The notes under the pieces were generated by a model. The model was given only the letters and a program-made list of their open reading frames with translations, did no database searches and had not been told where the DNA came from. DNA of 18,072 bases, taken from positions 1-18,072 of the forward strand of contig CANPXR010000018.1 in assembly GCA_947586655.1 (NCBI GenBank), written 5' to 3'. The translations under genes were made by a program, and so were the position numbers. Source of the DNA: an uncultured Bacilli bacterium (GTDB lineage: Bacteria; Bacillota_I; Bacilli_A; RF39; UBA660). Shown piece after piece: positions 2,341 through 18,072 of the stretch (the first letter of the stretch is position 1; every line of letters starts with the position of its first letter).

Positions 2341-3291
2341 TTAAGTAAGTTTGTAGAACTGCTTTGCGTTTTCTGATAATATTTTTTCACAATCACTATA
2401 TGTCCATGTGTTTCTTACTCTATCTAAAGAGTTATAATCAATGTTACCATGGCAGTCTACATTCCAATTATAATCTAAATCAAATAGTAATTTATCTGGA
2501 GATACAAGTTTTTTTAAAATATTAAGATATCCTAAAGAAAAATATTCATTTTTAGGAACACAAACTTTGTATGGATCAAGTGAAATATCAAGATCAGGTC
2601 CTAACCCAATCATTATATTTTCACTATTGTTTACTATTTTTATAGCCTCTTTATCTAAGCATGCACCGTGATTTAAAGTGCCTCTTAAGTTATTATCAAT
2701 TAAAAATTTAACCCATGAATTAGGACAACATTTATTTCTCCAGAACTTAGTTTCCACCCCATACCCGTCATCATAATTATAAACTGATGTATGTAGAATT
2801 ATTGGAACGTTATAAAATTTAAAAATTTCTATTAATTCCGGTTTAACATCTTCTTTAAAAAAACCACTACTAAAGCCATGAAATTTAATCGCCTTAGGTT
2901 TTGTTTCTTTTATTAAATTATCAACGTAATATGGTTCATCTAAGACGCCATGAATCATTGGAACAAAATGTATTTTTGTTTTTGTATTTGTTTTAGATAT
3001 CAAATCAAAGTAATATTTATTTACCTTTTCATACGGATTACATAATATATTTTCTTTTAATATTTTTCCTAAATAATTAACTTGTTTATAATAATATATT
3101 TTTTCGTAATTATCATGCTCCCACATTAAGGCACACGTACTATTATTTTTATCTTTTAAAACAGGCCAAGGCATCGGCATTAAAAGTCCAATATCAATCT
3201 TATTAAGTACGCAAAAGTCATCATAATCAAATAATGCCGATTCCCCAAAATAATAATCTTTCCCAATGTGACTATGTGCATCAATTATCAT
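2341..3291 (-). CDS. Metal-dependent TIM-barrel amidohydrolase (PF04909/Amidohydro_2-like)
   Basis: N-terminal MIIDAHSHIG (HxH metal motif), then later His and Asp residues (IHFVPMIHG, KFHGF, ILHTS, GPDLD). Start set at the ATG at 3291, preceded by GGGGGAATAAT. The ORF-track start at 3507 is an out-of-frame read-through of the peptide gene. Confidence 0.8.
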   Translation of the reverse strand: MIIDAHSHIGKDYYFGESALFDYDDFCVLNKIDIGLLMPMPWPVLKDKNNSTCALMWEHDNYEKIYYYKQVNYLGKILKENILCNPYEKVNKYYFDLISKTNTKTKIHFVPMIHGVLDEPYYVDNLIKETKPKAIKFHGFSSGFFKEDVKPELIEIFKFYNVPIILHTSVYNYDDGYGVETKFWRNKCCPNSWVKFLIDNNLRGTLNHGACLDKEAIKIVNNSENIMIGLGPDLDISLDPYKVCVPKNEYFSLGYLNILKKLVSPDKLLFDLDYNWNVDCHGNIDYNSLDRVRNTWTYSDCEKILSENAKQFYKLT

Positions 3292-3309
3292 ATTATTCCC
3301 CCATATTAG

Positions 3310-3337
3310 ATAAAAATAAGGACAAAACAAGTCCTTA
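3310..3337 (-). terminator. Hairpin plus U-tract directly after the precursor-peptide gene (likely leaky terminator/attenuator)
   Basis: The minus strand reads UAAGGAC-UUGUUUU-GUCCUUA followed by UUUUUAUC. The 7-bp stem (3 GC pairs) includes the peptide TAA stop. The amidohydrolase SD and ATG follow within about 20 nt. Confidence 0.6.
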
Positions 3338-3517
3338 TTTAATATAAATTTTTCTAACTTCTTTAATATTTTCGTTTTTATCTTTACATCCTTTACAAGT
3401 AGTATTGCAAGAGCCGACACCACCACCACATGCACAACTACTACATACTGAGGCATAAGTTTCCATTGAATTACGTAAAATTTTGTTTTTTGCCTCATTC
3501 TTGTCAAAAAATTTCAT
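3335..3517 (-). CDS. 60-aa cysteine-rich RiPP precursor-like peptide (six Cys within 20 residues)
   Basis: MKFFDKNEAKNKILRNSMETYASVCSSCACGGGVGSCNTTCKGCKDKNENIKEVRKIYIK. The SD is AAAGGAGGTGA, 5 nt before the ATG. The ATG overlaps the TGA of the rSAM gene (ATGA). A hairpin follows the stop. Confidence 0.75.
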   Translation of the reverse strand: MKFFDKNEAKNKILRNSMETYASVCSSCACGGGVGSCNTTCKGCKDKNENIKEVRKIYIK

Positions 3518-4860
3518 TGTCTCACCTCCTTTACTTTTTCAACACTATCTTTACTAATTAGATAACCACTTTTTAACAACCACCTTAACGTTTGTTTGGT
3601 GTGAATACAAAAAGGTTTATCTAGTGCCTGTCTACTTCCAAATAATGCCTCAGATTGAATGGCGCATCCACCACCACAAATGAATAAAGCTCCGCACCCT
3701 AAACATTTTTTATTGTTTAAAGTACACCGTTGTTTCCAAAATTTGATTTCATCAGAACATAATATTTTTTGTATTGAATCTTTATTAATGTTTCCTATTA
3801 CATATTTATCAGTTTTCAAGTATCCATGGCAAATACACACGTCTCCATTCGGCTTTATTGCTAATTGATTAGCTCCAATTGCCCCACAATCAGAAAATTT
3901 AAATTCGTTATTATAAAAACTGTCTATTTTTCTAATAATTCTTCCATCATATATATCGTTTTTAATTAAAATATTATGTGACTTAATAAGAAACTTACAA
4001 GCTCTTTTATAATAGTTTTCCCAATTACGATCATAATTGGTATAGTGGTATAAATTATAAAATATACTTTTTACTCCTAATTGTTTTAACCAAATAAGTA
4101 CTTTATCCTGATTGTCTAACAAATCCTCAGAAACCGTTATTGACAAACCATACTTACAGTTTTGAACATCAAGCATTGGAAATTTTTTTATCACCTCATC
4201 ATAAACACTTTTGTTACTAGTCCTATAAATTCTGTTTTTATCATTCAATTCTTTTGGTCCATCTATGGATACTCCTATTTCTACCTTATGCTTAGATAAA
4301 AATCTAATTTTTTCTTCGTCTAGTAAAGTAGCATTGGTAACCATTGAAAAATCAATTGGTGAATTTAATTCTACTGATTTATTTAAAATATATTTGATTA
4401 TTTCCCAATTTACTAAAGGTTCACCACCATAAAAAATAACCGAACCTCTTAATTTATTATCCTTTAAATAATTAGTATATTTAATTAAAGCACTTTGCGC
4501 TGTTTTTTTGGACATATTTACTTCTTTTTTATTGTTGAACTGACAATTTTCTATAAAACAATATTTACAACCTAAGTTACAAGCCGAGCTCAAAATAAAA
4601 TACATGATATTAATTTTCCCAGTTACTTTTTCATATCTATTTTTTACTATTTCTAAAGCTTGTTTATCCTTATGATAATCATCAACATAAATACCAATTT
4701 CTTTTAATTTTAATATTTCCTCTTGCGGTAGGTTAATATTTATTACATCATCATATTTCTTCTTATTTAAATAGACCACATCCATTATCAAAGAATTATA
4801 TATTGCATATAAATCTTTTTCTAATTTTACATGGTGAAAAAATTTAGATAGCATCATCAT
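3514..4860 (-). CDS. Radical SAM / SPASM-domain peptide maturase
   Basis: CNLGCKYC (CxxxCxxC) about 95 residues from the N-terminus, GGEPL motif, and a C-terminal SPASM signature CLGCGALFICGGGC (CX2CX5CX3C, nt 3664-3705) plus upstream Cys pairs. About 90 N-terminal residues precede the cluster motif, consistent with an RRE-like leader-binding domain. The start is ambiguous among GTG 4866 and ATG 4860/4857/4854. The SD AGGTGA (4863-4868) favours one of the ATGs. Confidence 0.9.
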   Translation of the reverse strand: MMMLSKFFHHVKLEKDLYAIYNSLIMDVVYLNKKKYDDVININLPQEEILKLKEIGIYVDDYHKDKQALEIVKNRYEKVTGKINIMYFILSSACNLGCKYCFIENCQFNNKKEVNMSKKTAQSALIKYTNYLKDNKLRGSVIFYGGEPLVNWEIIKYILNKSVELNSPIDFSMVTNATLLDEEKIRFLSKHKVEIGVSIDGPKELNDKNRIYRTSNKSVYDEVIKKFPMLDVQNCKYGLSITVSEDLLDNQDKVLIWLKQLGVKSIFYNLYHYTNYDRNWENYYKRACKFLIKSHNILIKNDIYDGRIIRKIDSFYNNEFKFSDCGAIGANQLAIKPNGDVCICHGYLKTDKYVIGNINKDSIQKILCSDEIKFWKQRCTLNNKKCLGCGALFICGGGCAIQSEALFGSRQALDKPFCIHTKQTLRWLLKSGYLISKDSVEKVKEVRQ

Positions 4861-5320
4861 AATCACCTAATTTATCTTCCATAATGATTTTACTTGTCTT
4901 AAAACCCATTTTTTCATAAAGTTTAATCGCCCGTAAGTTATCTTTACATACCTTTAATTCTAAGTAACTTAACCTATTACCTTTCGCCCACTTTTTAAAG
5001 CCATCTATAAGGGATTGTGCCACACCATTATTTCTAAATTCCTCTTCCACGTATAAAGCATCTAAAACCCCTACTTTTTTTATTTTAGAATCCCCGTTAT
5101 TTTGGATGTATCCATAAATGTAACCCACTATCTTTTTACTTTTTTTTGCGATTAAAAGGCACACGTCTTTATTATCAAAAAAATTTTCGTAAAGAGATTT
5201 TACAACGCAGTTTTCATTTATGTTCTTATCATATTTTTTTTCATCAACTATTAACTTCGTTAATAAATCATTTGCATCTAAAGCTAATTCATGATCTGCC
5301 TTGATTATATCTATGTTCAT
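4844..5320 (-). CDS. GNAT-family N-acetyltransferase
   Basis: About 158 aa with the acetyl-CoA motif A (LYVEEEFRNNGVAQSLI) and C-terminal LYEKMGF. Start set at the ATG at 5320, 5 nt after GGAGG. The ORF-track TTG at 5338 is unlikely. The 3' end overlaps the rSAM start region. Confidence 0.85.
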   Translation of the reverse strand: MNIDIIKADHELALDANDLLTKLIVDEKKYDKNINENCVVKSLYENFFDNKDVCLLIAKKSKKIVGYIYGYIQNNGDSKIKKVGVLDALYVEEEFRNNGVAQSLIDGFKKWAKGNRLSYLELKVCKDNLRAIKLYEKMGFKTSKIIMEDKLGDYDDAI

Positions 5321-5400
5321 ATTTGCCTCCACACTCAAATTATATATTTTAGATAGCGAAATATTTGTCGCTTATTATCTTACAAAATAGGTATATTCAT

Positions 5401-5817
5401 CTACGACTCTTTTATTTCTTCCACACCGAGGCAATAAGCAAATCTTATAAGCGTTTCTTTCTTCTTAATATAGTAATACCCTAAAGAAAAACCAAGGTTG
5501 TTAGCTATAAATCTATCATCATAATTATCTTCTTTATCAAGGTATGTCCAATATATAATTTTTCTTTCCTCAGTTGTTAATCTGTTAAAGGAGGATCTTA
5601 CGAGGTTAATGAAAACAACTCTATTTTTCAATTCATTATCATCCTTTTTCAAATAAATATTGTTATTTTGATAAGTATTTAACTGCTCTAATAAAAAGTT
5701 ATCATTTATCTTTGAATCTGATTTACTATCAACTGAAAGACTATAATAATTATATTTTTCTATTACTTCTTTTACGTTTTTCTTAGTTTTTGGCCAATCA
5801 ACACATGTCGTTTTCAT
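5401..5817 (-). CDS. ArpU-family (phage late-activator-like, sigma region-4-like) transcriptional regulator
   Basis: 138 aa. The N-terminal KTKKNVKEVIEKY and the C-terminal RLTTEERKIIYWTYL...IANNLGFSLGYYYIKKKETLIRFA match my recollection of the ArpU family layout. AAAGGAG lies 10 nt before the ATG. Confidence 0.65.
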   Translation of the reverse strand: MKTTCVDWPKTKKNVKEVIEKYNYYSLSVDSKSDSKINDNFLLEQLNTYQNNNIYLKKDDNELKNRVVFINLVRSSFNRLTTEERKIIYWTYLDKEDNYDDRFIANNLGFSLGYYYIKKKETLIRFAYCLGVEEIKES

Positions 5818-14725: not shown

Positions 14726-15634
14726 TTAACTAATATTTCTTGTTTCTCCATTATAAGTTCCACTTGTTTGGTAAGCATCGGTAACTAAAACTACGGCCTT
14801 TGAATCAATTCGTTCAATACCCTCACTAACTTTAAAATATTCACTTGTAGGAACTACACACATAATAATTTGATCCTTTTTATTTGTGTAACCGCCTCTT
14901 GTTTCTAGTAAAGTAATACCTAATTTTAGTTCATTTAACAAGTAATCACACACTCTTTCATCCTCATCAGTCGTAATATAAATGGCTTTGTTTTGGGATA
15001 TTCCTAAAACTACCTTATCTACCATTATATTCATTATGTATAGTACTATCATCGCATACAAAACCCTAGTCCATCCAAAGAAAAAACCACCAACTAAAAC
15101 TATTATTCCATCAATAACAAGCATAGACGTACCAATTGATACTTTAAAATACTTAGAGACAATCTGATTTAATATATCGGTGCCGCCCGTCGTAAAACCA
15201 CTTTTAAAAACTATACCAGCAGCAAATCCTACGCAAACACCACCTATTATTGTAATTAAGAGTAAATCTGAATTATCTATTAATATGTATTCACCTATAT
15301 TAGACGTAAGTTTTACAAAAATAGGAAATAAGAGTGAACCAACAATCGAATTCAACGTTTGCTTTTTTCCAAGTAGAAAAAAACTTAAAGTAAGGAAAAA
15401 CACGTTCAAAATTAATATCATTATGGAAGGATCAACAAAATTTTGAGTAATTATCGATATGCCACTAGCACCACCATAGACAATGTTATTCTTAAAAAAG
15501 AATAGATTATATGATACTGCATATATGATTACCGCAATCACTAATAAAAAATATCTTTTTAATAGGTGTGTTTTTTCAACTAATTGAAGAATATTTTGCC
15601 TTCTTTTTTCACTAAGTTTCCTAAACAGTTTCAT
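14726..15634 (-). CDS. YitT-family membrane protein (YitT_membrane + DUF2179)
   Basis: Five to six TM helices with GGASGISII and GFTTGGTDIL motifs, plus a soluble C-terminal DUF2179-like domain. It occupies the same position as yvjA in the Bacillus prfB-yvjA-ftsEX arrangement, as I recall it. Confidence 0.85.
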   Translation of the reverse strand: MKLFRKLSEKRRQNILQLVEKTHLLKRYFLLVIAVIIYAVSYNLFFFKNNIVYGGASGISIITQNFVDPSIMILILNVFFLTLSFFLLGKKQTLNSIVGSLLFPIFVKLTSNIGEYILIDNSDLLLITIIGGVCVGFAAGIVFKSGFTTGGTDILNQIVSKYFKVSIGTSMLVIDGIIVLVGGFFFGWTRVLYAMIVLYIMNIMVDKVVLGISQNKAIYITTDEDERVCDYLLNELKLGITLLETRGGYTNKKDQIIMCVVPTSEYFKVSEGIERIDSKAVVLVTDAYQTSGTYNGETRNIS

Positions 15635-16728
15635 TTTCTTTTTCCTTTCTTAAATAGCTATCAATAAATTCATCTAAGTTCCCATCTAATACCTTACTAA
15701 CATTTGAAGTTTCATATCCGGTTCGATGATCTTTTACCATTGAATAAGGGTGAAGCACATAACTTCTAATTTGAGAACCAAACTCTATACCACTATTATT
15801 ACTTTTTAACATATCAACCTTGCTTTTTTGTTTTTTTAATTCTATTTCATATAGCTTACTCTTTAAAACCTTTAAGGCAATCTCTTTGTTTTTTATTTGG
15901 CTTCGTTCATTTTGACACGTAACTACTATTCCAGTTGGTATATGAGTTACTCTTACCGCACTATCAGTAGTGTTAACTCCTTGACCTCCTGCGCCGCTGC
16001 TTCTATATACATCTATTTTTATGTCCGAATCCTTTAACTCTATATCAACGTTATCATCAAACTCTGGAATAACGTCAACGGCCGCAAAAGAAGTATGTCT
16101 ACGCTTATTTGAGTCAAATGGTGATAACCTTATCAAGCGATGTACCCCTTTTTCAGATTTTAAGTATCCATATGCATAATTACCTTTAACTATGCACGTA
16201 ACACTCTTAATACCAACTTCCTCCCCCGTTTGCTCGAAAGTTATTTCATATTTATAACCTTTTTTATCAAAATATTTTAAATACATTCTAAGAAGCATTT
16301 GCGCCCAGTCTTGACTTTCGGTACCACCAGCACCCGCATGAATTTCAAAAATAGCATTTTTTTCATCAAATTCACCATTTAAAAAGGTTATCATTTCTTG
16401 TTCTTCTAATAATTTATTAGTTTCTATAAATATCTTTTCAAATTCCTGATTAATTTGCTCATCCATTTGATTTTCTTCAAATTCCTTAAATTGTTCAAGT
16501 ACTTCAATATTCCTTTTAATCTTTATTAAAGGACTTATTATTTCCTTTAATTTACTCATTTCTTTTGTTAAATTTTCGGCATTATAGGTATCATTCCAAA
16601 TTCTAGAATCTGATAATTTTTTATTTATTTCATTAATTTTTATTTCTTTTGCCGAAACGTCAAAGACAACTCCATATTTTATTAAACTTTGATTCTAAAA
16701 TTAATATATCTTTATTAGTAATTTCCAT
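15621..16728 (-). CDS. prfB: Peptide chain release factor 2, requiring a programmed +1 frameshift
   Basis: Frame 0 runs from the ATG at 16728 through 22 codons (MEITNKDILILESKFNKIWSCL) to TGA at 16660-16662. The +1 frame continues from GAC at 16661 to TAG at 15621. It contains the SPF tripeptide (RLSPFD) and GGQ (SGAGGQGVNTT). The joined product is about 368 aa. Confidence 0.95.
16659..16674 (-). promoter_or_regulatory. RF2 autoregulatory +1 frameshift site (GGAG-N4-CTT TGA C)
   Basis: The minus strand reads TGGAGTTGT CTT TGA C. The canonical CUU UGA C slippery/stop context has an internal SD-like GGAG 4 nt upstream. Confidence 0.9.
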
Positions 16729-16754: not shown

Positions 16755-16889
16755 TAAAAATATAATTAAATAAATCAAACAATATTAAAAAATACTGGGA
16801 TTATTTTCCATGGCATTTAACTTAAGATATATGCTAATCTTTAGTATAAATATTAATATTACATAATTATGATTAAATATTTTTTTACT

Positions 16890-16939
16890 TAAAAATTGAA
16901 AAAAATAAAAATGAGCTATCACCATTTAATGCTAACTCA
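16890..16939 (-). terminator. Possible terminator after the 104-aa ORF
   Basis: The minus strand reads UGAGUUA-N14-UAGCUCA (7-bp stem with one G-U pair and a large loop) followed by UUUUUAUUUUUUCAAUUUUU. Confidence 0.35.
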
Positions 16940-17012
16940 CTTTTTATCATCTTCTACTTCAAACTACCTCATTTTTTAACGGTAACAAATTATATAAAAT
17001 TCTTAATTTTAA

Positions 17013-17327
17013 TTATTTCGTTTTTTTTGTAAAGGTACATCCAAAACTATCTGATTTATCATCATCACTAAATTTTTTATTTTTTAATTCTAATAATATC
17101 ATTTTAGTAAAACCCGTATTATGATCAATTAAATATTGAACTTCAATAATACTCATTTTATCTAAAAGATTTGGTTCATTCGCTGCGCATAATATTTCTT
17201 TTAATGTTAAATTACCATTACCAAATTCACCATTTCTATACTTTTGCATTATACTGTTATATTTCTCAATATTAACAGTTAACGTTTCTTTTTTATTACC
17301 TTCTAATTCCAAATGACTCATCTCCAT
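17013..17327 (-). CDS. Hypothetical protein (orphan, no recognisable family)
   Basis: 104-aa ORF with a Lys/Asp-rich tail. There is no convincing SD before either ATG (17327 or 17321). Coding status is uncertain. Confidence 0.4.
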   Translation of the reverse strand: MEMSHLELEGNKKETLTVNIEKYNSIMQKYRNGEFGNGNLTLKEILCAANEPNLLDKMSIIEVQYLIDHNTGFTKMILLELKNKKFSDDDKSDSFGCTFTKKTK

Positions 17328-17440
17328 ATATATAAATTCTATTTAATTTAAAATTATTGCACACCTAAATTTACACTTGTTACTTATCCCAATAGTTTTT
17401 ATATTTCTTACCAAACCCACATGCTCCCTACTTTTGAGTA

Positions 17441-17601
17441 TATATAGTATATATAGTATTACCGTTATTATCGGTATTTCAAGGGATTCTAGAGCAGGTA
17501 ACAAATAGTATTTATGTTATTTATAATATTATCAATATTTCTTTAAATACTGGTCTTGGCACATTTTGTATTTATAGTATTATTAGTATTATTGATATTA
17601 T
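17441..17601. repeat. Iteron/operator-like repeats
   Basis: The 14-mer TATTATYRRTATTW occurs three times at 60-61-nt spacing (17466-17479, 17527-17540, 17587-17600). ATAGTAT occurs four times (17444, 17453, 17505, 17574), with a fifth partial TAGTATT copy at 17584. Confidence 0.4.
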
Positions 17602-17612
17602 AAATATTTATT

Positions 17613-17669
17613 AAATGAGGACAATTTGAGGAAAATTTCCTCATTTATACCTCGTTTTCAAAAAACGAG
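17613..17669. other. Cluster of hairpin-forming inverted repeats downstream of the KilA-N-family gene
   Basis: Arm C, TTTCCTCATTT (17636-17646), can pair with either AAATGAGGA (17613-17621) or TGAGGAAA (17627-17634). A separate 8-bp hairpin CTCGTTTT-CAA-AAAACGAG lies at 17651-17669. None has a clean minus-strand U-tract. Confidence 0.35.
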
Positions 17670-17712
17670 AAAATTTTCAACATTCGTTTACCAACTAAAT
17701 TATATAATTTTT

Positions 17713-18072
17713 TTATTGTTCAATTAACTTATTCTCATTAACTTGTTTTTGTAACAATTCTAAATCTTTAATACTTTTGTTATTTTTTAAAGTTTCCATT
17801 TGTCTTCTTGCTGAATTGTTTAATCTAATAAGTCTTTCTCTTTGAGGAACTTTTTCTTCAATTAATTCTGCATTTGTATTTTGTAAATTATTAAGTATTA
17901 CTAAATGTAATAGATCAGCATAGTCCCTTATATTTCCATCTTCTGCAAGTTCTGGATTACTTTCTCTCCATTCTTTTGCAGTCATTCCAAATAAAGCAAC
18001 GTTTAATACATCAGCTTCTTCTGCATACACAAATTGTTTTTGTTTTTCAGTTAAAGTTGGAACTATGCATTT
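17713..18072 (-). CDS. KilA-N-domain family protein, C-terminal part (5' end lies beyond the right edge)
   Basis: The frame is open to base 18072 (KCIVPTLTEKQKQFVYAEEADVLNVALFGMTAKEWRESNPE...GNIRDYADLLHLVILNNLQNTNAELIE...RERLIRLNNSARRQMETL). This matches the conserved C-terminal half of the roughly 270-aa KilA-N-domain proteins as I recall them. The ORF-track start at 18030 is an internal GTG. Confidence 0.75.
   Translation of the reverse strand, partial: KCIVPTLTEKQKQFVYAEEADVLNVALFGMTAKEWRESNPELAEDGNIRDYADLLHLVILNNLQNTNAELIEEKVPQRERLIRLNNSARRQMETLKNNKSIKDLELLQKQVNENKLIEQ

Follow-up and report, generated by a model that had tools for sequence, protein, structure and literature searches.

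The subject of this report is a small gene in an 18,072-nt stretch of DNA (hereafter the window) from an uncultured Bacilli bacterium (contig CANPXR010000018.1). The gene is an open reading frame (ORF) of 60 amino acids (aa) at 3335-3517 on the (-) strand, with the translation MKFFDKNEAKNKILRNSMETYASVCSSCACGGGVGSCNTTCKGCKDKNENIKEVRKIYIK, and it belongs to a cassette that is read entirely on this strand. It is preceded by genes for a GNAT N-acetyltransferase and a radical S-adenosylmethionine (rSAM)/SPASM peptide maturase, and it is followed by a gene for a 316-aa protein with an amidohydrolase-type fold (Table 1). An earlier, sequence-only reading of the same DNA had described the ORF as a six-cysteine, precursor-like peptide, and each part of this description is found in the sequence: six Cys at positions 25, 28, 30, 37, 41, and 44 (spacing 2, 1, 6, 3, 2), a charged N-terminus, and a Lys/Glu-rich tail. 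Cysteine-rich peptides modified by rSAM enzymes, such as the SCIFF peptides, are widespread, and their functions are largely unknown. We argue here that the ORF is a genuine gene and probably encodes the precursor of a RiPP, a peptide made on the ribosome and altered after translation.

Table 1. Features of the cassette, with positions in the window.
Feature	Position	Strand	Details
Predicted precursor peptide gene	3335..3517	(-)	public gene calls, homologous clusters, purifying selection, invariant Cys and Tyr
Predicted leader	residues 1-24, nt 3446-3517	(-)	8 charged residues
Predicted Cys-rich core	residues 25-44, nt 3386-3445	(-)	CSSCACGGGVGSCNTTCKGC
Predicted follower	residues 45-60, nt 3338-3385	(-)	KDKNENIKEVRKIYIK; Lys/Glu-rich, 16 residues, Cys-free
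Stop codon TAA of the peptide gene	3335-3337	(-)	
Shine-Dalgarno sequence of the peptide gene	3522..3532	(-)	AAAGGAGGTGA; 4 nt before the peptide ATG, within the last rSAM codons
Hairpin	3314..3340	(-)	10-bp stem, 7-nt loop, into a U-rich stretch; overlaps the peptide stop codon
Radical-SAM/SPASM peptide maturase	3514..4866	(-)	450 aa from GTG 4866; 448 aa from ATG 4860 by public callers
Domains of the maturase			RiPP recognition element (RRE)-like, about residues 10-79; CxxxCxxC C96, C100, C103; SPASM C327, C346, C388, C391, C397, C401, C420
GNAT N-acetyltransferase	4844..5338	(-)	164 aa from TTG; 158 aa from ATG 5320 by public callers; Acetyltransf_1 6e-19
Predicted amidohydrolase-superfamily TIM-barrel HxH protein	2341..3291	(-)	316 aa, true start ATG 3291, own GGGGGA Shine-Dalgarno-like site
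ArpU-family transcriptional regulator	5401..5817	(-)	TIGR01637 47.7 bits vs cutoff 43.1

The start of the peptide gene is closely tied to the end of the rSAM gene. As had been noted before, the two genes overlap in an ATGA (3514-3517), in which the rSAM stop codon TGA shares nucleotides with the peptide start codon, and the overlap is accompanied by a strong Shine-Dalgarno (SD) sequence. The sequence AGGAGGTGA has two perfect copies in the window, and that of the peptide gene is the only one ahead of a start codon. Judged from these two signals, the peptide gene is translationally coupled to the rSAM gene. We compared the region with three orthologous loci, L011 (Candidatus Aphodocola excrementigallinarum), L012 (a 'Mollicutes' metagenome-assembled genome, MAG), and L013 (a Bacilli MAG), and in all of them the SD site GGAGGTGA is kept ahead of the peptide start. 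In subfamilies B and D of the peptide (see below), the 3' end of the rSAM gene is overlapped by the peptide start by 14-17 nt. The hairpin reported after the peptide stop codon is also present: it folds with -11.2 kcal/mol (z = -1.83, weak when taken alone), and the three orthologues have a hairpin and a U-run at the same position with different stem sequences (-9.8 to -14.3 kcal/mol). It is not listed by a simple terminator scan because its stem reaches into the U-run, and a search of the window against Rfam returned no RNA family; therefore, it is not a known RNA element. Placed between the peptide gene and the one that follows, the hairpin is likely to act as a partial terminator or to stabilise the RNA. 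The GC content of the cassette (26-29%) is slightly below that of its flanks (30-35%).

In a list of the longest ORFs, the peptide gene is crossed in another frame by a 388-aa ORF that starts at TTG 3507 (2341-3507) and reads YVVVVHVVVV in this region. The sequence-only reading took the N-terminal part of this ORF for a spurious extension of the 316-aa protein, and the comparison bears this out, because the frame upstream of the ATG of the 316-aa protein is open for just 15, 11, and 4 codons in L011, L012, and L013, respectively, and because 34 of the 34 aligned homologues of this protein start at MIIDxHSH. The same orthologues keep the 60-aa frame open and retain every Cys. In other words, the 388-aa ORF is, on this comparative evidence, an artefact of mechanical longest-ORF listing. 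The opposite possibility, that the 60-aa ORF is a chance open frame and the 388-aa ORF the real gene, has in its favour that the latter is uninterrupted in the window; we consider it next to impossible, since it is refuted by the homologue starts, by the frames closed in the orthologues, and by the selection on the 60-aa frame described below. The peptide gene had also been called “masked”. This is true of a longest-ORF listing and not otherwise, because the gene callers used on 13 public contigs already report both the 60-aa gene and its 316-aa neighbour, and the Aphodocola orthologue of the peptide is listed in GenBank as a 'hypothetical protein'. Such listings can hide real small genes, and standard callers had found the present one.

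Among four species-level orthologues, the proportion of synonymous differences (pS) over the whole peptide gene is 0.58-0.82, that is, synonymous sites are saturated, while the proportion of nonsynonymous differences (pN) is 0.16-0.23. The constraint is distributed unevenly. The core and follower have a pN of 0.05-0.10 against a pS of 0.62-0.85, with a ratio of nonsynonymous to synonymous substitution rates (dN/dS) of ~0.03-0.08 for the pairs in which dS is computable, whereas the pN of the leader is 0.31-0.44. By these measures, 3335-3517 is a genuine protein-coding gene under purifying selection. The same boundary appears in a wider set of 40 peptide clusters that have the exact 2, 1, 6, 3, 2 Cys spacing, where the mean pairwise identity is 0.41 in the leader and 0.77 in the core and follower. 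The division into leader, core, and follower that had been proposed from the single sequence is thus reproduced by the pattern of divergence.

It should be mentioned that genetic code 4, in which TGA means Trp and the rSAM stop codon would be read through, was considered and rejected. The window contains prfB (release factor 2; 15621-16728, (-) strand) as a 22-codon ORF, MEITNKDILILESKFNKIWSCL (16660-16728), and a main ORF, and between them lies a classical programmed +1 frameshift site, CTT TGA C, at about 16660-16666 with GGAG just upstream. Because prfB has this canonical site, TGA is a stop codon in the source organism. Code 4 is further countered by the rSAM orthologue of L013, which terminates with a TAA upstream of the peptide start.

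How widespread is this peptide? In a profile search covering 5.8 billion proteins, 85 homologous clusters were recovered, none of which is named or has a Pfam domain, and a separate exhaustive scan of 1.84 billion representatives with HMMER found 19 representatives (at 50% identity) at E<=0.001. The window peptide itself has no Pfam match and matches no NCBIfam family even at E<=10. Among the genome matches, the hosts are gut Bacilli/'Mollicutes' that are uncultured and low in GC, together with some Clostridia MAGs. As far as these searches can tell, the family is real but narrow. When the profile-search set is combined with nine extra representatives, there are 88 full-length clusters, with lengths of 51-64 aa and 4-7 Cys, and they can be arranged in subfamilies with the following patterns: A (that of the window), ASVCxSCACGGGxxSCNTTCKGCKDKxxN..V+..Y.K; B, ASTCACGICSGGSGNCKGCQDKN..; C, ASTCRCASLCQGGGVNCKGCQDQN..; D, ..CACTGGACVTCKGCKDKG..; E, SSSCNCGSCNCNCGGGGSPTTKCSKQAK..IYK; F, ANQCTCSNCNCNCKFSLNNN..Y; and G (L017), KCNCGNCSCNCGAGC...RNAY.

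Within subfamily A, represented by the above-mentioned 40 clusters, each of the six Cys is present in 40/40, as are S23, V24, S27, A29, G31, G33, T40, K42, G43, K45, and D46. The NTTC motif is nearly as constant (N in 39/40, the first T in 38/40, and the second in 40/40); it is missing from subfamilies B-F, and both NTTC and KDK are missing from E and F. In a 43-sequence alignment of representatives of all the subfamilies, only Cys25, Cys41, and Tyr58 are invariant. The C-terminal Tyr usually follows Ile or Val and is 1-5 residues from the C-terminus, with two residues after the last Tyr in 45 of the 88 clusters.

In the loci examined, the peptide gene always has a gene for a homologous RRE-rSAM-SPASM enzyme as its neighbour. 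Among ten genome loci with an rSAM at least 41% identical to that of the window, nine have a family peptide within about 1.3 kb, and in the tenth (L018) the contig ends at the expected place of the peptide. Its placement varies: in L011-L015 and L019 it comes directly downstream of the rSAM gene, in L016 and L020 it is upstream and divergent, and in L017 it is downstream and convergent. The pairing recurs on metagenome contigs from subfamilies B, D, E, and F. The expectation that the peptide would be found beside homologous rSAM genes was therefore borne out in different orientations and positions. In L011-L013, the synteny is complete (uvrA - ArpU-like - GNAT - rSAM - peptide - 316-aa protein - YvlD-like - lgt - trxB). 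No exporter, C39 peptidase, leader protease, or immunity gene travels with the pair in the loci examined. From this pairing, the 60-residue peptide is almost certainly the substrate of the upstream rSAM enzyme. In one subfamily F contig (L094, 3562-4848), a DDE transposase of an insertion sequence element lies between the rSAM and peptide genes, which are 20 nt apart in the otherwise similar L095.

The enzyme has the Pfam matches Radical_SAM, Fer4_12, and SPASM, and it contains the CxxxCxxC motif and seven conserved SPASM Cys. When the 25 best NCBIfam matches were considered, its best models were those of peptide maturases: FibroRumin TIGR04136 over the full length (248.3 bits; cutoff, 400), PapB (166; 340), nif11-like (139; 518.7), anSME (131; 349.45), QhpD (130; 453), and the SCIFF maturase TIGR03974 (123.2; 425). 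The PapB, QhpD, and SCIFF models match at 1e-35 to 1e-48. The closest solved structure by sequence is CteB, a SCIFF maturase (5WGG; E = 4e-29), and with an AlphaFold2 (AF2) model of the enzyme (predicted local distance difference test score, pLDDT, 89.6), the best Foldseek fold matches are CteB, TigE, anSME, ChlB, and SuiB. In this model, residues 10-79 form an N-terminal strand-strand-strand-helix-helix-helix unit, a topology typical of an RRE.

We therefore come to the interpretation. Two features of the ranthipeptide/sactipeptide class are present at this locus, namely a Cys-rich precursor encoded beside its maturase and an rSAM/SPASM enzyme related to characterised thioether synthases, with an RRE recognised from topology only. 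A third feature of this class would be sulfur-to-carbon crosslinks, made at the alpha carbon in sactipeptides and at the beta or gamma carbon in ranthipeptides. On the basis of gene content and conservation, we think it quite probable that 3335-3517 (-) encodes a RiPP precursor modified by an RRE-rSAM-SPASM enzyme, presumably with thioether crosslinks. The mechanism may be imagined from characterised relatives, CteB, PapB, QhpD, and NxxcB (PMC8326336). The variable, charged leader would dock on the N-terminal RRE-like domain of the enzyme. The 5'-deoxyadenosyl radical chemistry would abstract a hydrogen from a side-chain (or alpha) carbon in the core SVCxSCACGGGxxSCNTTCKGCKDK, and a thioether ring would be closed at the carbon radical by the thiolate of a Cys, which auxiliary cluster I possibly holds. 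The product would be a compact thioether-crosslinked peptide of the ranthipeptide or sactipeptide type. Candidate acceptors near the Cys are N38, T39, T40, D46, and N48, which are conserved in subfamilies A-D and not in E and F; therefore, the subfamilies may not have the same ring topology. The follower, in which Tyr58 is invariant, might be a second recognition element or a part of the product. In the clade of the window, acetylation of an amine may be the task of the GNAT, and trimming or other tailoring of the product may be that of the amidohydrolase-fold enzyme, and methyltransferases would take the tailoring place in other clades. Because no exporter or leader protease was found and the precursor seems to be made in step with the enzyme, the product may have an intracellular role or may exit through general routes.

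Several observations weigh against this interpretation, and the chemistry, which is its weakest step, is not readable from sequence. By analogy with the characterised relatives, the crosslinks are probably thioethers. On the other hand, TigE, the fourth best structural match, makes cyclopropylglycine and not thioethers, and anSME, also among the structural matches, oxidises Cys or Ser. The acceptor residues are not conserved across the subfamilies, as the absence of NTTC and KDK from E and F illustrates. The RRE-like domain is assigned from the predicted order of secondary-structure elements, and Pfam PqqD has no match in the enzyme. Moreover, conservation is far stronger in the core than in the leader, the reverse of many RiPP families, and this could point to a role other than that of a diversifying natural product. 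A rival explanation keeps the peptide as the substrate of the enzyme and supposes a chemistry other than Cys thioethers: the enzyme might form a C-C bond or cyclophane at Tyr58 (Y-x-K), epimerise residues, oxidise Cys, or perform another radical reaction, with the Cys serving as metal or cluster ligands. The near-C-terminal Tyr is one of just three residues invariant across the representative set, it is followed by two residues in the 45 clusters mentioned above, and the Y-x-K form is seen in the sequences themselves. The cyclophane-forming maturases YhhB, AmcB, and FxsB are among the NCBIfam matches of the enzyme (81-91 bits), and TigE, fourth among the structural matches, is a non-thioether enzyme. 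However, the thioether-type maturases (FibroRumin, PapB, QhpD, and SCIFF) score clearly higher, CteB is the top structural match, a dense Cys cluster is common to all the subfamilies, and subfamily E has one residue after the Tyr, so that a three-residue cyclophane motif is not general. We consider such non-thioether chemistry unlikely, although worth keeping in mind. Two specific forms, a three-residue cyclophane at Y-x-K and a Glu-Tyr pair like that of pyrroloquinoline quinone, were rejected because the spacing is not conserved across subfamilies.

Another explanation supposes no modification at all: the peptide would be a metal-binding (metallothionein-like) or Fe-S-handling protein beside the rSAM enzyme, for example a cluster-loading helper. 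Its Cys/Gly-rich, metallothionein-like composition, the lack of a protease or exporter with the pair, and the translational coupling, which suggests that the peptide is made in step with the enzyme, would suit this role. Nevertheless, the pairing outlasts rearrangements and changes of the accessory genes, as is expected of an enzyme and its substrate, the enzyme is a member of peptide-maturase families and carries an RRE-like domain for peptide binding, and the selection pattern of leader, core, and follower suits a precursor. Other rSAM/SPASM enzymes are not known to need such a helper protein. We regard this explanation as very unlikely. The remaining alternative, that the peptide is simply an unrecognised SCIFF or FibroRumin precursor, draws on its SCIFF-like six Cys, on FibroRumin being the best-scoring model for the enzyme, and on the weak matches that a hidden Markov model of the window peptide family has to a few FibroRumin peptides (E 4e-4 to 0.5 when a small database is searched). 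It is highly improbable in view of the following comparison.

The FibroRumin system, consisting of a TIGR04136 maturase and a TIGR04135 Cys-rich RiPP, is defined bioinformatically. TIGR04136 is the best family model for the window enzyme, whose length and rSAM/SPASM domains are those of the FibroRumin maturase, and both systems have a peptide of roughly 50-60 aa with a dense Cys cluster and a near-C-terminal aromatic residue (Trp in FibroRumin, Tyr in the window). The window enzyme is about 33% identical to those of FibroRumin and scores 248 bits, in comparison with 774-781 for true members, and the enzymes of subfamilies B, E, and F score 190-232 bits, also below the cutoff. Neither the window peptide nor four peptides of other subfamilies match TIGR04135 (cutoff, 45 bits), against which the positive controls from L026 score 64-70 bits. 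An hhalign comparison with FibroRumin peptides gave a probability of 30% over 16 Cys-rich columns only, and homology with them was rejected on this result. The gene arrangement differs too: FibroRumin peptides lie upstream of the maturase, often in 2-4 tandem copies with an acidic D/E-W-E tail, and ABC-ATPase-like (ABC-transporter-type) genes are found just downstream of the maturase in most loci examined, whereas the window system has one coupled downstream copy whose tail is basic (V/I-Y-x-K), and its cassette contains a GNAT gene and an amidohydrolase-fold gene but lacks a transporter.

The SCIFF peptides and other ranthipeptides (CteA-CteB, Tte1186a, freyrasin PapA-PapB, and NxxcA-NxxcB) are the second group of relatives, since CteB is the nearest structure and PapB the second-best model. 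They share with the window system six Cys, a minimal two-gene core with no dedicated exporter or protease, and Asn, Thr, or Asp as possible acceptors beside the Cys. The SCIFF peptides are by definition about 45 residues long and have six Cys located in their C-terminal part, and they are widely conserved and not hypervariable (PMC8326336), in which the window peptide is alike. The latter has six Cys but 60 aa, a 16-residue Cys-free follower, and the 2, 1, 6, 3, 2 spacing; it does not match TIGR03973 at E<=10, and the maturase falls far short of the SCIFF cutoff. The earlier statement that this is not a SCIFF peptide therefore stands. Furthermore, the peptide gene here is downstream of the maturase, the hosts are those named above, and the crosslinks are presumed by analogy. 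The NxxC ranthipeptides (NxxcA/NxxcB) have a conserved NxxC motif as the crosslink site and an NxxcB-type maturase. Here the comparison concerns NTTC, which the earlier reading named as an NxxC unit and which is at most a candidate for one; it is near-invariant in the window subfamily and missing in B-F, and no NxxcB-specific model is among the 25 best NCBIfam matches of the enzyme. Because the rSAM enzymes are below the cutoff and the peptide has no detectable homology with FibroRumin peptides, the peptide-rSAM pair is, by these sequence comparisons, a separate sister family to FibroRumin, outside both FibroRumin and SCIFF. In kind, a Cys-rich RiPP modified by an rSAM/SPASM enzyme is already known; what is new is the peptide family, the gene order, the follower, and the accessory enzymes. 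A search of the accessible literature found no paper on the FibroRumin system or TIGR04136, and none on a Cys-rich peptide with a radical SAM enzyme in RF39. The rSAM-RiPP compendium (PMC10288494) does not contain 'Fibrobacter', 'acetyltransferase', or 'SCIFF', and the passages of it that were examined do not deal with the window peptide family.

What might the product do? Here, the quinohemoprotein amine dehydrogenase system offers an analogy. In the qhpADCB operon, the rSAM gene is followed by the gene for a small Cys-rich polypeptide that is crosslinked by the rSAM enzyme, and then by that for a partner protein, and the QhpC product remains with the enzyme instead of being secreted as a natural product. 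For the window enzyme, QhpD is one of the better-scoring models, and the order resembles that of the rSAM, peptide, and 316-aa protein genes in the window, although the likeness is architectural only: the locus lacks heme, dehydrogenase, and protease genes, the peptide lacks the Trp/cysteine tryptophylquinone context of QhpC, and the 316-aa protein is missing in subfamilies B, E, and F. We infer that the function resembles the logic of SCIFF, QhpC, or mycofactocin more than that of a bacteriocin, because of the coupled one-to-one expression, the invariant core with its drifting leader, the lack of export and immunity genes, and the fixed position among housekeeping genes in four species. A bolder version would make the crosslinked peptide an intracellular stoichiometric cofactor or subunit of the amidohydrolase-fold enzyme, QhpC- or mycofactocin-like and not exported. 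The same coupling, near-invariant core and follower, missing exporter, immunity, and protease genes, and fixed housekeeping position would fit it, and so would the repeated occurrence of relatives of the amidohydrolase-fold protein next to other rSAM peptide clusters. The absence of an amidohydrolase-fold gene from subfamilies B, E, and F speaks against it, and we find this version quite doubtful.

The 316-aa protein had been called an amidohydrolase. This is supported at the level of the fold: its AF2 model (pLDDT 94.8) is closest, in Foldseek, to ACMSD-type Amidohydro_2 TIM barrels and groups with ACMSD, 2,3-DHBD, dihydroorotase, and others (10-14% identity, E 4e-8 to 1e-5, TM 0.5-0.6), whereas by Pfam (PF04909) it reaches 11.7 bits, below the gathering score of 26.4, and it has no sequence match in the PDB at E<=1. 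With the Amidohydro_2/ACMSD-type enzymes it shares the predicted fold, the first-strand HxH, and invariant His and Asp (its invariant residues are D4, H6, H8, H114, K136, H138, H167, H208, D271, and D273), and it differs from them in the low identity, the sub-cutoff Pfam score, and an extra beta-hairpin insertion at residues 43-81. It is thus, as modelled, a divergent member of the amidohydrolase superfamily at the fold level only. Its family comprises 58 clusters, and on the contigs examined the members adjoin rSAM clusters, either of the present peptide system or of other kinds. The gene is co-located with the rSAM and peptide genes in L011-L013 and in L100. Distant homologues (41% and 35% identity) adjoin other, unrelated rSAM clusters in L102 (199-6218), L103, and the P0255 contig: after the homologue in L102 come genes for a peptide of 31-37 aa (MSNTDLMTSLENLSEEDAKLVSLSIVCDRCM), for three rSAM/SPASM proteins, and for one B12-binding rSAM protein, and after that in the P0255 contig come two rSAM genes. 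Because distant relatives adjoin other rSAM clusters, the family may consist of general tailoring enzymes or peptidases of rSAM peptide pathways.

The 3' end of the GNAT gene overlaps the start of the rSAM gene, and the two adjoin each other in L011-L013. In L016, the pair is neighboured by a GNAT gene (44% identical) that is oriented differently. Subfamilies A and D have a GNAT gene ahead of the rSAM gene and a gene for a 316-322-aa protein after the peptide gene. The whole block of GNAT, rSAM, peptide, and amidohydrolase-fold genes recurs in the different, unrelated chromosomal setting of L100; this four-gene cassette moves as a unit. With this locus, a compact sister family from uncultured gut Bacilli is described for the first time. 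It is a small, well-defined target for co-expression, from which a new pattern of crosslinks might emerge, as might a first function for the new amidohydrolase-fold family whose members are repeatedly found next to rSAM peptide clusters.

The ArpU-like gene, of the phage late-gene regulator type, is kept in the three syntenic orthologues (65-71% identity) and not in the L100 cassette, and its product may be a local regulator of the cassette and not a core part. This protein is 27-29% identical to ArpU of Geobacillus/Bacillus phages, and no other phage genes are nearby. A prophage origin was rejected: the closest rSAM proteins in a phage collection are at most 28% identical and generic, and the gene annotated as 'Phage_holin_4_2' is kept in the same position in the syntenic orthologues. 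This gene corresponds to that for the YvlD-type membrane protein in the uvrA-yvlD-lgt neighbourhood that is usual in Bacilli.

Other clades have other neighbours. No accessory gene is recognisable in subfamily B. The GNAT and amidohydrolase-fold genes give way in subfamilies E and F to an RlmA-like Zn-ribbon methyltransferase gene (L091, 4079-4912; L095, 2069-3656; L020, 5165-6004), and in subfamily F a second methyltransferase gene also adjoins the rSAM gene. Far from the cassette, the end of the window (16800-18072) has the lowest GC content (24-25%) and contains just short ORFs of 104-105 aa.

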